A stretch of DNA of 55,270 nucleotides from Scenedesmus sp. PABB004 (GCA_014905635.1 JABVCE010000020.1:682001-737270), one strand, 5' to 3'. Counted from the stretch's first letter, positions 28,048 to 55,270 are shown. The notes: generated by a model not told the origin, from the letters alone. Program-made: numbers and translations.

Positions 28048-30528
28048 TCACGGCGCCGCGGCGTTCGGCGGCGCGTTGGCCGCGTGCCGGCTGCGCCCGT
28101 CGGCCGTCGCGAGGGGGCCGTACAGCTCCGGGCGCCGGTCCCGGAAGACGCCCCACCTGGTCGTGCGGCGTGGCGAGCGCCGCGGCGAGCGGGCGCAGCG
28201 TCGGTTGCGGCGGTTGCGGGCGCGGTCGTGGCGCGCGCCGCGGCACGCGCCGCGGCGCGCCGCCGCAGCAGCCCGCGCGCGCAGCCAGCGCGGCGCCGTG
28301 GCGGGCCGCACCCGTGGCGCATGCGGCGCACGGCGTCCAGGTCAAACTCGTGGACCACGAAGCCCTCGGCCGGCGCGGGCGCGGGGTGCGGCGCGCCGGC
28401 GAGGCCGGCGAGGCCGTCGTCGCCGCCGGCGCCGACCTGGGCCACCACCTCGCCGCTGGGGCCGGCAATGAAGCTGCCGCCGTAAAAGGTGATGGAGCTG
28501 CGCTCAAATGCCTCGGTGCCGATGCGGTTGGACGCGACGAGCGGGACCTGGGGGGGGGGGCACGCGCGCGTGCGCGAGGAGGGCGGCGCGCGTGGAGGGC
28601 GGGACGGGGCGCGGGCAGGCGGGTCGGGGCTGGCTGCGCGCCGGACGCGCGCCCCGCGGCGGCAGCGGCGGACCGCCGACGCAACGACAACCGGGCCGTG
28701 CCGCCGCCGCGCGCGCACCAGGTTTGCGGCGGCGTGGCCGAGCATGCAGCGCGCCCAGTGCAGGTAGCTGCTGTACCCGGGCGCCTCGGGCTCGCTGCCG
28801 ATGGCGGTGGGGTAGAGCAGCACCTGCGCGGCGCGGCGGGCGGGGGTGTGGGGGGGGTGCGTGCGTGCGTGCGTGCGTGCTTGCGTGCGTGCGTGCGTGC
28901 GTGCGTGCGTGCGTGCGTGCGTGCGCGCGTGCGTGCGTGCGTGCGCGTGCGTGCGTGCGTGAGAGGGGGAGGGGCGATGCACGGTGAGGGGAGGCGGGGG
29001 CGGCGGCGGGCGGCAGGCGCGCGCGTGGTGCTGCCCGGCCTCGGAAGGAGGTCGACGGTGGCACGACGCGCGGCGTGCCGCGCCGCGCGCGCCCGCGCGC
29101 GCCGTGCGCCCCGCCGGGCCGCCGCGCCGGGCCGCCGTGGTGGTCAGGGTCTGTGCACGAGGTCTGCTGGCGCACAGGCGACCTGACCACCACGGCGGCC
29201 CGGCGCGGCGCGCCGTGCCAGGGCTTGCAACCTGCCTGCCAGCACGGCCGAGCGCGGCGCGGCGCGGGCCCCGGCAGCGCCAGGGGCGGCGCGTGCCCCC
29301 CTCCCTTCCCTGTCCCCCCCCCTCCCGTCCCCAGCGCCGCCGCCCCGCGCGTGCGCGCGCCGCACCTCGGCGCCCTGCAGCGCCATCGCGCGCGCGGCCT
29401 CGGGGAACCACTGGTCCCAGCAGATGCCCGCGCCGAGGCGGCCGTGGCGGGTGTCAAAGACCATAAACCCCGTGTCGCCGGGCGTGAAGTAAAATTTCTC
29501 CTGGTACCTGCGGGCGCGCGCGTGTGGGCGCGCATGTTGTGTGCGTGGGTGTGGGTGGGTGCGTGTGCGTGGGTGTGCATGTGCATGTGCGTGGGTGTGC
29601 ATGTGCGTGTGTCGGGGTGGTGCAGGCGGGAGGGCGCGGGCGGGAGGCGGGCGGGACGGGGAGCGAGGCCGCGGGCGGCGGCGGCGGCGGCGGCGGCGGC
29701 GGCGGCGGGCGGCGGCGGCGGCGGCGGTGCGCGGCCGCGCGGCCGCGCGCGCACCCCGGGCCGTCTGGGATGTGGCTCTTGCGGTAGACGCCCAGCACCG
29801 TGCCGTCGGCGTCGATCATGGCGAGCGAGTTGAAGTGCGCGGCGCCGCACCGCTCGAAGAAGCTGACCGGCAGCACCACGCCCAGCTCGCGCGCGAGCTT
29901 GGACAGCCTGGCGCGCGCGCGCGCGCGCGCGCGCGCGAGGGAAGGAGGGCGCGGCGCGTGAGCGCGGGCGGCGGCGGCGACGCGCGGCGGCGGCGGCGCG
30001 CGCGGAGGCCGTCCTGCGAGGCGGCCGCGGGCGGCGCGCGCGCGCCGCACCGCTGCACCGGCTTGCTCTCCGCCAGCGGCTTGGCCCAGTCAAAGTACTC
30101 CTGCGGGCGGGCGCGGGGGGCGGCAGGGGCGGCGGGTTGGCGTGCGTGAGCCCGTGCGCGCGCCCGCCGACGCCGGCGGCGCGGCCGCGCCTCACTCACC
30201 GCCTTTTGCTCCTGGCAGAAGTACCAGTTCTCGAACAGCTCCTGCCAAGCGCGGGCGCGTGGTCAGGGGAGCGCGATGAGTGAGGCGCGCGCGACAGCAG
30301 ACGGCGCCGCACCTGCAGCAGGATCACGTTGGCGCCCTTGGCCGCCGCGGCGCGGACCATCTTCTCCGCCTTGTCCTGCAGCGGCCGGGCGGCCGGGACC
30401 GGTCGGGCGGGCGCCGGGGGGCGCGGCGCGGCGGCGCTGCTGCGCGGCGCGCCCCGCCGCACCAGGTTGGCCTCCGGGTCCCGGCCGATCGCCATCTGCG
30501 TCGCCGCGACCTTCACCAGCCGCGGCAT
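28048..30528 (-). CDS. CPA: N-carbamoylputrescine amidase (nitrilase superfamily, polyamine synthesis)
   Basis: ILLQ|ELF, YRKSHIPDGPG|YQEKFYFTPGDTGF, ICWDQWFPEAAR, YPTAIGSEP, ASNRIG and WGVFRDRRPELY. Confidence 0.96.
28857..28960 (+). repeat. (GTGC)n microsatellite at the 3' end of an amidase intron
   Basis: About 25 tetranucleotide units. Confidence 0.9.
29123..29207. repeat. Perfect 26-bp inverted repeat (intronic hairpin)
   Basis: cgcgccgggccgccgtggtggtcagg at 29123-29148 is the exact reverse complement of 29182-29207. Confidence 0.92.
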
Positions 30529-52775: not shown

Positions 52776-55270
52776 TCAGGGCGCGGGCTTGGAGGTGGGC
52801 AGCGTCTCGCTGCCGTCGGCCTGCACGCGCGAGCCGGGCGCCGTCTCCACGCCGGGCGGCAGGCTGTCGTCCACCTCCTTCACCGCAGCGTGGTGCGCCG
52901 CGTGCTCGGGGTTGACGTGGTACTGCGGGGCGCGGGGTTTTGAGGTTGTTATTTGGTAGTTTGAGTTTTTGAATGCAGCGGGCGACAGCCGCAGCGGCCG
53001 GACGCGCGCGCGGGCGGGAGCGCGGGACCGCAGCGCGGGAGCGCGGGCGCGCGGCGCGGCGGCGCACCTGCAGCACTGCGCTGGGGCTCTTGAACGGCAG
53101 CGGCACGCGCATCTTGTCCTGCAAGCGGCGCGCACGCGGGGGGAGGCGAGGCGTCGGCCGGCGCGCCCCCGTGGGCCGCTGCTGCAGCGGGCGCGGCGCG
53201 CGCAGGCCGCTGCTGCAGCGGCGCCGCCACCGCAGCGCGCGCGGCGGGCAGGGCCCCGCGCCAGCGCGCGCGGCGCGCGCGCTGCGCGGCGCGCGCGCTG
53301 GAAGGCGTCGGGGCAGTTGGCGTAGAGGACCTGCGGCCGGCGGCGCGCGGCGGCGGTCGGCGCGCGCGTGGGCTGCGGGCGGCCCCCGCCGGCGCCGACC
53401 GTGGCCCCCTCGCCGCCGCGCGCGCGCCCCGCCGCGGCGTGCGCTGCCCGCCCCAGTGCGCGCTGGGCTGGGCGCCGGGCGCTGGGCGGCGGGCGGCGCG
53501 CACGTTGTGGAGGTTGTTGCGGCCAAGGGGATGCCGGCGAGGTCGAGAATGAAGTTGAACAAGTAGAGGGTGAGGTAGCTGGACGTTATAACACGTTAAA
53601 ATACGACGGGGCGAGCGGGGTGGGGCGGGGCAGGCGGGCGGGGCGGGGGCGCGGGGTGCGGGCGGGGCGGCGTCAGCTGTGTGCGCTGGAGCGAGGGGCC
53701 GGCGAGGCGCAGGGTGGGAGGGGCGCCGGCGGCGGCCGCAGCGTCGGCGGGGGCCGCGCCTGCAGACGCCGGCGATGACGCCATAGGCGATGGAATAGGT
53801 CTGTGGTGGTGGTGTGTGTGTATGTGTGGAGGGGGGGGGGCGTGCGTGGGTGTGTGTGGGAGGGAGGTGGCGCGGCGGGCGTGAGGCAGGGGCGAGGGCG
53901 CGCGAGGGGCGGCGCGAGGGCGAGCGCGGGGGGCGCGCGCGGGGCCGCCGCGCGCGCGCGGGCGCTGGGTGGTCGCCGCCCCAGCGTGGTTGGCAATGCA
54001 GCAACGCAGCGCCGCGCAGGGCGGGGTCCGCGGCGACGCACCGGAGCCCCCTCCCCCCCCCCCCCCACACACACACACACACGCACGCACACGCACACCA
54101 CGGCCTGCCCGCGCCCGCGCGGCGCCGCCCCCGCGCTGAGCAGCCGCCAGGGTTGCGCAACGTGGCACCTGCTCAGCGCGACGCGGCGGCGCTGCGGGGG
54201 CCGCCCGAGCGGCCCAAGCCCCCAACCGCGGCGGCGGCGGCCGCAGCGCAGGGCGCGCCGGCGGCCGCCGCCGCGTGCGGCGCTGGGTGGAAGTCGAGGC
54301 CAGAGTGCGCAGCGACTTGCACCTAGCGCCGCGCAGCGGCGGGCGCGCCGCTGGGAGCCCCTGCCGTCGCACGCCCCCGGCGCCGGGCCGCGGGCGGCGC
54401 CGCGGTCGCCCCCCGCGCGCTCAAGCAGCGGGAGCCAGGGCTGCGAAAACCTGGCACCTCCTGAGCTGAGCGCAGGGGGCGGCCCGCGGCGCTGGCGGCG
54501 CTGCGGGGGCTGCCCAGCCAGCCCAAACGCCTCGAATCCCACCGTGTCAGCGAGGCGGCCGCGGCCCAGGGCGCCGCGCCTCGGCGCCGGCTGCTGCGCC
54601 TCGGCGCCCGAGGGAGAGTGGAGGAGCAGCAGCTGGCGCCGACGCGGCGCGCGCCGACGGCGCTCGCTCGCTGCCCCGGACACAGCCCCCCCCCCCCCCG
54701 CCCGCAACCCGCCGGGGCGTGCGCGCGGCAGCCTGCGCGCGCGCTGGCTCGGGCCGCCGCGCCCCCACGCGCGGGGCGGCTGCGGCGCGCCGCCGGGCTG
54801 CAAGCCCCCGACCAAAACCCTCACCCGCGCGGGCCGCGCGCGTGAGAGGGGCACCGGGCACCTTCAACCACTCAAAACCCTCAACCAAATCACCCCTGAG
54901 CCCTAAACCCTAAACCCTAGACACCCCCCCCCCCCGCGCGCACCAGGGGCATCGTGACGATGGTGATGAAAGCGGGAACCGCTTGCTGCGGGGGGGGGGG
55001 GGGGGGGGGCAGGGGCGGTGTGAGTGGCGTGTGAGCGGCGTGTGAGCGGCGTGCGAGCGGCGTGTGAGCGGCGTGCGAGCGGCGTGCGAGCGGCGGCGGG
55101 GAGGGGAGGGGTCGAGGGTCGTGCGAGGGTGGTGGGGCGTGGTGGACGCGGGGGCAGCGCGCGAGCGGCCGGCGGCCCATCCCCGGCCGGGACGCGGGTC
55201 TCGGCGGCGGCGGCGGGCTCGGGGGTCAGGGTGACGAGGTTGGCGGCCTCCTGACCGCAACCTGCGCACC
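52776..55270 (-). CDS. AzgA/AZG-type adenine-guanine permease (NCS2-related), 3' exons only
   Basis: AVPAFITIVTMPL|TYSIAYGVIAGVC is the AzgA C-terminal signature. Downstream exons end at ...TSKPAP-TGA. The 5' part lies outside the window. Confidence 0.8.
54895..54921 (+). repeat. Interstitial telomere-like repeat (CCCTAAA) just inside an intron donor of the minus-strand gene
   Basis: ccctgagccctaaaccctaaaccctag. Confidence 0.85.
55019..55093 (+). repeat. 11-bp tandem repeat GTG[T/C]GAGCGGC x~7, intronic
   Basis: Read directly from the sequence. Confidence 0.85.

Follow-up and report, generated by a model that had tools for sequence, protein, structure and literature searches.

What are near-perfect hairpins of roughly one size doing, in such numbers, inside introns? 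The question is raised by a 55,270-nucleotide (nt) stretch of DNA from Scenedesmus sp. PABB004 (the window, a single 55-kb stretch to which all results given here refer), in whose long introns a preliminary description had noticed many inverted repeats of similar size, and for which it had proposed folding that shortens the effective intron, an intronic source of small RNAs, or intron growth by hairpin modules through template switching. The analysis presented here shows that these modules multiply locally as tandem units, and that a complete array of several hairpins, all but an entire intron, lies in what seem to be two unrelated genes, co-oriented with transcription. As for what the hairpins are, we would give an even chance to their being palindromic DNA-level modules of an introner-like repeat that resides and duplicates within introns.

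Strength, size and position of the hairpins

The hairpins are real and stand strongly above chance. All those named in the preliminary description exist, either in place or a few bases away, and an ungapped scan (loop of at most 40 nt, mismatch score -3) returned 10 inverted repeats with a score of at least 20, as against 0 in 80 block-wise dinucleotide shuffles. At a score of at least 16 (mismatch score -2) there were 21, as against 0.4 on average, and never more than 2, in 30 dinucleotide shuffles; in other words, such stems are by no means equally frequent in shuffled DNA. Of these, 17 are located past 29 kb; the remaining four, all within the first 28 kb, consist of GCC/GGC- or GAC-type triplets repeated in coding-like DNA or next to it. 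When folded with RNAfold, the hairpins form long single stems of 35-45 base pairs (bp) with apical loops of 3-9 nt, and for 18 of 20 hairpins none of 200 shuffles was as stable (z-scores from -5.4 to -12.2), the exceptions being 36836-36921 (7/200) and 54560-54650 (1/200). What is more, among 100-nt sliding windows a z-score below -5 was reached by 21 of 643 in the non-exon DNA of 28-55 kb, by 1 of 554 in the non-exon DNA of 1-28 kb and, within the exons of a rough exon model, by 0 of 218 (1-28 kb) and 1 of 160 (28-55 kb), which bears out the earlier remark that exons hold no comparable stems.

Weaker and shorter inverted repeats (score 12-19) are enriched as well, at 35 against 9.2 per shuffle, 31 of the 35 being in non-exon DNA and spread over both halves of the window. 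Another class than the intronic hairpins is formed by the palindromes of the first 28 kb (2455-2520, 8117-8212 and 19392-19519), which consist of repeated triplets that complement one another (GCC/GGC, GAC/GTC). A non-exon stretch, 17591-18877, holds a cluster of four short inverted repeats at 18443-18761 (score 12-13, spans of 39-43 nt), and these may be decayed modules of the same kind as the intronic hairpins.

As to size, the similarity proved tighter than had been claimed. The ten best hairpins (two of them copies of one family, and two more related) span 84-91 nt, with a mean of 88.5 and a standard deviation of 2.5, their perfect arms of 24-36 nt and poorly paired centres of 18-39 nt trading off to a constant total, whereas matches in shuffled sequence span 49 ± 13 nt and fall within 84-92 nt in 0.3% of cases. 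Over all 23 hairpins of the curated set listed below, the median span is 91 nt. Adjacent hairpins lie 136-227 nt apart, centre to centre, and in 5 of 10 introns the 5' splice site and the centre of the first hairpin are separated by 177-200 nt (both derived by hand from the coordinates). Such figures bear on the possibility that each hairpin was born in place, by replication template switching or fold-back repair, with no mobile or repeated element involved and with its relatives arising as later tandem duplications. Namely, a process of this kind predicts no fixed size, and neither the constant span nor the regular spacing of neighbours sits well with it. On the other hand, a span held at about 88 nt among unrelated sequences, together with stable stem-loops of suitable size, speaks for small-RNA precursors of the microRNA (miRNA) or small interfering RNA (siRNA) type, whose size would be set by Dicer-like cutting of stems of ~40 bp from spliced or unspliced introns.

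The curated set (n=23) consists of the hairpins of the preliminary description together with those starting at 36654, 36836, 39554, 39931, 48465, 49206, 49346 and 51294. All 23 are found outside exons, within four genes of the 29-55 kb region: the PurF and Rpt genes carry nine each and two minus-strand genes the others. Genes were recognised by translating three-base-periodic segments, and three were identified. The two main host genes and the hairpins, with the z-scores of their folds, are given here.

34791..40650, plus strand: gene for amidophosphoribosyltransferase (glutamine PRPP amidotransferase, PurF); exon 34791-34961 against PDB PurF chains, E 3e-7
46590..51660, plus strand: gene for a proteasome Rpt-type AAA ATPase; single exons match Pfam Prot_ATP_ID_OB_C (3.5e-11) and AAA (4.9e-18)
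29120..29210, modelled 542-nt intron of a minus-strand gene: singleton; 29-bp perfect arms; z -11.6, 0/200 shuffles
35171..35260, PurF intron 34972-35699: singleton; 36-nt arms with 3 mismatches; z -8.5
36465..36566, PurF intron 36385-37122: A1, opening unit of tandem array A; z -10.5
36654..36756, PurF intron 36385-37122: A2; z -9.6
36836..36921: A3, a decayed copy aligning with A1 and A2; z -2.1, 7/200 shuffles as good
38427..38521, PurF intron 38284-38937: singleton; z -7.6
38656..38747, PurF intron 38284-38937: singleton; z -9.9
39554..39651, PurF intron 39425-40196: B0, partly similar to B1 and B2; z -10.8
39748..39837, PurF intron 39425-40196: B1; z -12.2
39931..40020, PurF intron 39425-40196: B2; z -6.7
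47978..48064, Rpt intron 47826-48736: singleton; z -10.1
48169..48252, Rpt intron 47826-48736: D1, homologue of D2; z -8.7
48330..48408, Rpt intron 47826-48736: E1, homologue of E2 and E3; z -5.4
48465..48561, Rpt intron 47826-48736: F1, homologue of F2, absent from the preliminary description; z -6.8
49036..49126, Rpt intron 48901-49713: C1; 26/26 arms; z -9.9
49206..49289, Rpt intron 48901-49713: singleton between C1 and C2; z -5.8
49346..49435, Rpt intron 48901-49713: C2; z -10.7
50623..50727, Rpt intron 50532-50842: singleton; z -10.2
51294..51411, last Rpt intron, 51203-51606: GC-only low-complexity arms, with many weak GC-rich BLAST matches elsewhere within the window; z -6.0
54113..54201: E3, internal duplicate of E2; minimum free energy (MFE) -80.9 kcal/mol with flanks
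54270..54350: F2, aligning with F1; sliding-window z -7.6 at 54251
54400..54500: E2; MFE -87.1 kcal/mol with flanks
54560..54650: D2, 96% identical to D1 over 28 nt; z -3.1, equalled by 1/200 shuffles

How general are the hairpins among long introns? In the PurF and Rpt genes, 8 of the 10 introns of at least 300 nt carry one to four of them and none of the 11 shorter ones does, the long introns without a hairpin being 37675-38190 and 49805-50147, so that for these two genes the earlier statement that most long introns carry hairpins stands. Across the window, however, it does not. Namely, in an approximate exon model, for which the exons of PurF and Rpt formed the training set and which gives 121 introns with a median of 158 nt and which, having errors such as false minus-strand exons within a PurF intron, served for counts only, hairpins occur in 5 of 11 introns of 600-1200 nt and in 3 of 14 of 300-600 nt. 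The hairpin-free long modelled introns lie mostly within the first 28 kb, and some of them are possibly intergenic. Since many long modelled introns elsewhere in the window carry none, the hairpins are a regional or gene-specific feature and no rule for long introns. In nine long introns they make up 32% of the sequence (2043 of 6475 nt).

A few observations on the surroundings may be added. Base composition is 79% G+C along the entire window, which is extreme for a eukaryote-type gene mosaic, and exon third positions are near saturation; three-base periodicity shows short exons and introns alternating on both strands. The Rpt gene is presumably Rpt6, to go by its C-terminal sequence. Its hairpin-free intron 49805-50147 is filled by a 41-nt tandem repeat (49842-50064, 5.4 copies, 88% matches). 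A third plus-strand gene, at 44.1-46.3 kb, is without family assignment, and a coding-like exon at 44594-44941, with a long glutamine/glutamate-rich GCAGCA repeat and perfect three-base periodicity, matched no Pfam family.

Families, tandem arrays and the multi-hairpin intron

To call the hairpins mostly unrelated in sequence, as had been done, was an overstatement. When each was compared with the window by BLAST and then by alignment, 15 of the 23 were found to have a relative there and fell into six families, leaving eight as singletons. Three sets (families A, B and C) are tandem duplicates, and in general the local multiplication involves tandem units of about 185-310 nt with one hairpin each. 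In array A (36466-36923), to which the program Tandem Repeats Finder assigns a period of 188, 2.5 copies and 82% matches, the spacers are homologous too, 36466-36743 and 36654-36923 being 80.6% identical over 283 nt. In family B, of which there are three copies, the unit 39612-39864 is 74.7% identical to 39807-40046 over 253 nt and the B1 and B2 hairpins 91% identical over 89 nt, while the two copies of family C (49012-49181 and 49322-49492, 78% identical over 176 nt) are separated by one unrelated hairpin and followed by another. A metagenome match to a family-B arm, in which one contig of 61% GC shared only a 21-mer, was judged to be due to chance.

Could the hairpins be spurious, in other words local inverted duplications introduced by sequencing or assembly? 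We find this scarcely credible. In particular, diverged copies (75-91% identity), tandem as well as dispersed, each retain the hairpin, and the hairpins are restricted to introns between intact conserved exons.

Families D, E and F connect a long Rpt intron with the opposite strand at 53.8-54.9 kb.

47826..48736, plus strand: Rpt ATPase intron of 911 nt with four hairpins, homologous by local alignment to 53801-54943
53801..54943, minus strand: putative 1143-nt intron of a minus-strand gene, assigned by splice consensus, with the same multi-hairpin sequence and an internal duplication

Sense to sense, the two give a local alignment score of 174.5, as against 68.5 antisense and, in ten shuffles, 73 on average and 83.5 at most. 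The homology spans 47896-48729 in the Rpt intron and 54941-53802 in the minus-strand copy, which holds the internal duplication of about 290 nt; the opening third of the alignment is poor. Three hairpins (D, E and F) are common to both. Similarity reaches the 3' ends of both introns (48729 of 48736; 53802 of 53801), and at the 5' end of the minus-strand intron it begins about 2-4 nt in. The splice consensus of the minus-strand copy comprises GT at 54943 and AG at 53801, with the boundaries (marked by slashes) ...CCCCGCAG/CAAGCGG...CCCCTG/GTGCGCG and ...CCACCACAG/ACCTATTCC, and the pieces flanking it translate to QAVPAFITIVTMPL and TYSIAYGVIAGVC, which are unrelated to the Rpt ATPase exons. The two pieces bear a putative likeness to a conserved membrane segment of AzgA-type purine permeases. 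A 21-mer that both homologous introns conserve had 0 matches in a scan of viral contigs.

If 53801-54943 is truly an intron, two unrelated genes would hold homologous introns in the same transcriptional orientation, and this would be the defining property of introners. In the passages drawn on here, the published criteria (Gozashti et al. 2022, PMC9860276) ask that an introner family comprise at least four introns, that introns of non-paralogous genes be similar in sequence, and that in each intron the similarity stop no more than about 10 bases short of either splice site. The two introns here are alike well beyond the shuffle maximum, but measured against the criteria as a whole the pair is an incomplete case. 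Would our conclusions be different if 53801-54943 were no intron? In that case a copy of the repeat, inverted and 6 kb away, would still stand. In either case, this is the sole paralogous intron pair, and the hairpins are already in both copies; the fact that D, E and F are older than the copying of the intron-length segment between genes argues against their birth in place. The earlier proposal that introns grow by hairpin modules through template switching is therefore upheld as to growth, by the tandem units of ~188 nt and by the intron common to two genes, but independent birth by template switching fits poorly with a constant 88 nt.

Arms, whole-intron folds and the origin of the hairpins

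If the hairpins were precursors of small RNAs, one would look for signs of their being maintained as RNA. Plus- and minus-strand folds are nearly equal in stability (the plus strand being favoured in 14 of 22), and a strand bias is unconvincing, with 44 G:U pairs on the transcribed strand as against 30 on the other, a non-significant difference (22 hairpins). B2 differs from B1 by uncompensated transitions that take the energy from -89 (B1) to -70 kcal/mol (B2), and compensatory changes, of which alignments of 2-3 sequences offer only 3-4 pairs, are too scarce for interpretation. In the whole window, no Rfam family was matched at gathering thresholds (0 matches). The lack of a significant G:U bias to the transcribed strand, the uncompensated decay of the B copies and the empty Rfam search all count against small-RNA precursors, and so does the very high density, with 23 hairpins over some 26 kb and as many as 4-5 in one intron of a housekeeping gene, where the relevant passages of Valli et al. 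give only a handful per genome (PMC4817775). What does favour such precursors, apart from the constant size and the stable stems, is the precedent of Chlamydomonas, in which the same passages place 9 of 18 high-confidence miRNAs in introns, as well as the arms, which are conserved better than centres and flanks, as in miRNA precursors. On balance we consider this explanation unlikely. That said, a small-RNA or splicing role of the hairpins is possible, judging from their sequence, and the transcripts would certainly fold, so that they could be Dicer substrates as a by-product.

The arms themselves deserve a closer look. Identity between copies is 87% in the arms (440/507), 70% in the centres (238/339) and 62% in the spacers (436/701), as counted over seven non-independent pairs with gaps scored as differences; G+C is 88% in the arms, 68% in the centres and 78.5% in the remainder of the same introns; and pairing is highest at the outer ends and lowest centrally, falling from 0.90 to 0.26 on the ungapped diagonal. 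This pattern fits a selected RNA stem, arms that are required for copying, or GC-biased arm-to-arm correction. The fall in pairing from ends to centre also counts in favour of birth in place by template switching, together with the eight singletons of unrelated sequence, the lack of target-site duplications (TSDs) and of common termini, and published accounts which, to the extent drawn on here, report that template switching generates and homogenises the arms of inverted repeats (PMC10710096, PMC8794818, PMC8604942, PMC13100816). However, spacer inversion, a hallmark of arm switching, is unsupported by the copies, direct orientation being better in 8 of 10 centre comparisons. With the size, the spacing and the age of D, E and F also against it, an origin of each hairpin by template switching in place seems to us improbable.

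In minimum-energy folds of complete introns, the hairpins form local branches closed upon themselves, and helices of 20-40 bp join, in silico, the two ends of the intron. This is what one would expect if the hairpins were RNA structures selected to bring the 5' splice site near the branch point, for a spliceosome that favours short introns; the median modelled intron is indeed short, and in the 911-nt Rpt intron the folded hairpins leave roughly 300 nt unstructured. However, the end-to-end pairing is mostly compositional. In particular, PurF and Rpt introns start G-rich and end C-rich (e.g. 37675-38190, 39425-40196 and 47826-48736), most of them having a 5' G/C skew of about +0.3 to +0.67, and most a 3' skew of -0.5 to -0.97. 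Against shuffles that preserve end composition, end pairing has a mean z of 0.9, the same as in other introns, and end-pair scores are 23.0 within the same intron versus 21.6 across introns. What is more, 6 of the 11 modelled introns of 600-1200 nt are without such a hairpin. Of the earlier suggestion that folding shortens the effective intron, then, the self-contained branches hold good, but the pairing of the ends is a matter of composition, and long introns elsewhere are hairpin-free. Compaction also accounts for tolerance and not for origin: folding may explain, on these models, why inserts are tolerated, but as an explanation of the hairpins themselves we hold selection for compaction to be decidedly improbable.

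Several further features of intron ends were recorded. Measured against shuffles that keep composition, terminal inverted repeats of whole introns reached z > 3 in only 3 of 18 introns (4 of 22 in a first version) and are not claimed; the similar ends of Rpt intron 48901-49713 were noticed by eye. A telomere-repeat-like motif, GGGTTTAGGGTTTAGGGYTSAG, has 8 occurrences with at most 3 mismatches, as against 0 expected. In the sense orientation it is found on the plus strand at 36121-36142, 37682-37703, 39449-39470 and 48954-48975 and on the minus strand at 54896-54924, sitting 7-53 nt downstream of the start of introns in hairpin-rich genes, while its antisense occurrences at 49617-49638 and 22802-22823 are of the CCCTAAACCC type, with branch-point-like CTAAC/CTGAC, near intron 3' ends. 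The motif could form a G-quadruplex, act in regulation, or mark the ends of an element carried by introns. Microsatellites occupy intron ends at 28857-28961, 36935-37069 and 51423-51602; (GTGC)n lies just within one end of a modelled minus-strand intron, and CCCTC/CTCTCCCTCC-type pyrimidine arrays precede acceptor sites. Because of these pyrimidine arrays, introns 36385-37122 and 51203-51606 show a spurious similarity.

Taking the hairpins to be palindromic modules of an introner-like repeat, one can picture the following course of events. Palindromes of ~88 nt, with GC-rich, perfect or near-perfect outer arms and decayed, less GC-rich centres, would be the modules of a repeated intron-dwelling sequence that lengthens introns. 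They would be made or kept symmetric at the DNA level, through arm-to-arm correction or template switching, perhaps GC-biased, and would survive only in introns, because a self-folding insert that is spliced out probably adds little effective length. In this sense, the system would act as an introner-like or foldback-type non-autonomous repeat and not as a set of individually selected RNA structures. The alternatives of small RNAs, of in-situ template switching and of splicing compaction are partly compatible with such a repeat. A bolder and, to our minds, doubtful proposal goes further: the ~88-nt palindrome may be a unit set by structure and size and not by sequence which, with a spacer of ~60-100 nt, is the building block of a mobile intron system, so that introns grow by a block every 140-230 nt and multi-hairpin introns are copied to other genes, the arms staying symmetric while their sequences drift until no longer recognisable, via concerted (possibly GC-biased) correction or selection.

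A number of points weigh against the introner-like repeat and should be set out together. Eight of the 23 hairpins are without a relative within the 55-kb window. Only one dispersed pair is seen, hence a local segmental copy is possible, where introners, by the published criterion (in the passages of PMC9860276 drawn on here), require at least four introns. In the Rpt intron the similarity begins 70 nt inside the 5' splice site (47896), after a GGC/GGTTGC microsatellite. The intron status of 53801-54943 depends on the splice consensus and two tiny exon pieces, and Pfam found no match in the minus-strand reading frames of 51.5-54.2 kb. Among 22 hairpins, we found no TSDs, the longest flanking direct repeat being 3 nt and most being 0-1 nt, and no common terminal motif. 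Finally, the non-independence of the seven pairs limits what the arm comparison can support, and constant length with better-conserved arms suits a selected RNA hairpin equally well.

Significance and comparison with known systems

The gain and the lengthening of introns are not yet understood, and known introners are defined by shared sequence. The present window suggests a modular route, in which short palindromes of constant size multiply within introns and an intron-length sequence with several hairpins comes to lie in two unrelated genes. If the bolder proposal above were true, we would be dealing with a new kind of introner, whose transcripts would be a large intronic source of double-stranded RNA. 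Were the modular route confirmed genome-wide, one could test hairpin structure as a driver of intron proliferation, as has been proposed for fungal symmetrical introns, and likewise the concerted evolution of palindrome arms on a small scale and the feeding of the RNA-silencing machinery by such introns; if it were not, these would be ordinary intron-resident repeats of unusual base composition. In open-access papers and preprints, we found no description of arrays of constant-size hairpins of ~90 nt in nuclear introns.

Several known systems nevertheless resemble what is seen here in one respect or another. Miniature inverted-repeat transposable elements (MITEs) and foldback elements, including the MITE-derived hairpins of plant miRNAs, are likewise short, non-coding inverted repeats, frequent in introns and capable of forming hairpin RNA, to go by the account in PMC9641971. 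Here, however, there are no TSDs and no terminal motif common to the hairpins, and relatives are mostly tandem, with a single dispersed relationship seen within the window, 48 kb versus 54 kb; nor can the hairpins be reduced to MITE families bearing TSDs. The intronic miRNA hairpins of Chlamydomonas are, in the passages of Valli et al. 2016 drawn on here (PMC4817775), near-perfect stem-loops in introns of protein-coding genes of a GC-rich genome, much as in the present alga-like genome; they differ in occurring at few loci per genome, as opposed to the density found here, where the hairpins are known from sequence alone. Template-switch hairpins, to go by the accounts used here (PMC10710096, PMC8794818), share perfect inverted copies, the lack of TSDs and arms that are complementary without selection, whereas a constant 88-nt size, arrays and copying between genes are not predicted for them.

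The closest known systems are introners and the fungal introner-like or symmetrical introns. In Hypoxylaceae, according to the part of the published description used here, proliferating (stw)introns consist of inverted repeats of 45-55 nt, have no flanking duplications and degenerate with age (PMC8469720). The near-perfect inverted repeats, the similar arm length and the absence of flanking duplications are common to both cases, and the loss of symmetry in older copies and the restriction of function to the coding strand are further likenesses. In Hypoxylaceae, however, the hairpin is the whole intron with its splice sites, whereas here the hairpins are internal (130-690 nt inside introns, with GC-rich ends and no GT...AG), several per intron and mostly unrelated in sequence. 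Introners, for their part, differ from the present case in that similarity here begins well inside the Rpt intron, and in that modular palindrome arrays also multiply in tandem within an intron, a feature that the introner source, in the passages drawn on here, does not describe (PMC9860276). What they would share with it, as the same passages have it, is that introns of unrelated genes are alike over nearly their full length and in the same orientation, that the sequence is non-coding and GC-rich, and that some introner families are without TSDs and terminal inverted repeats.

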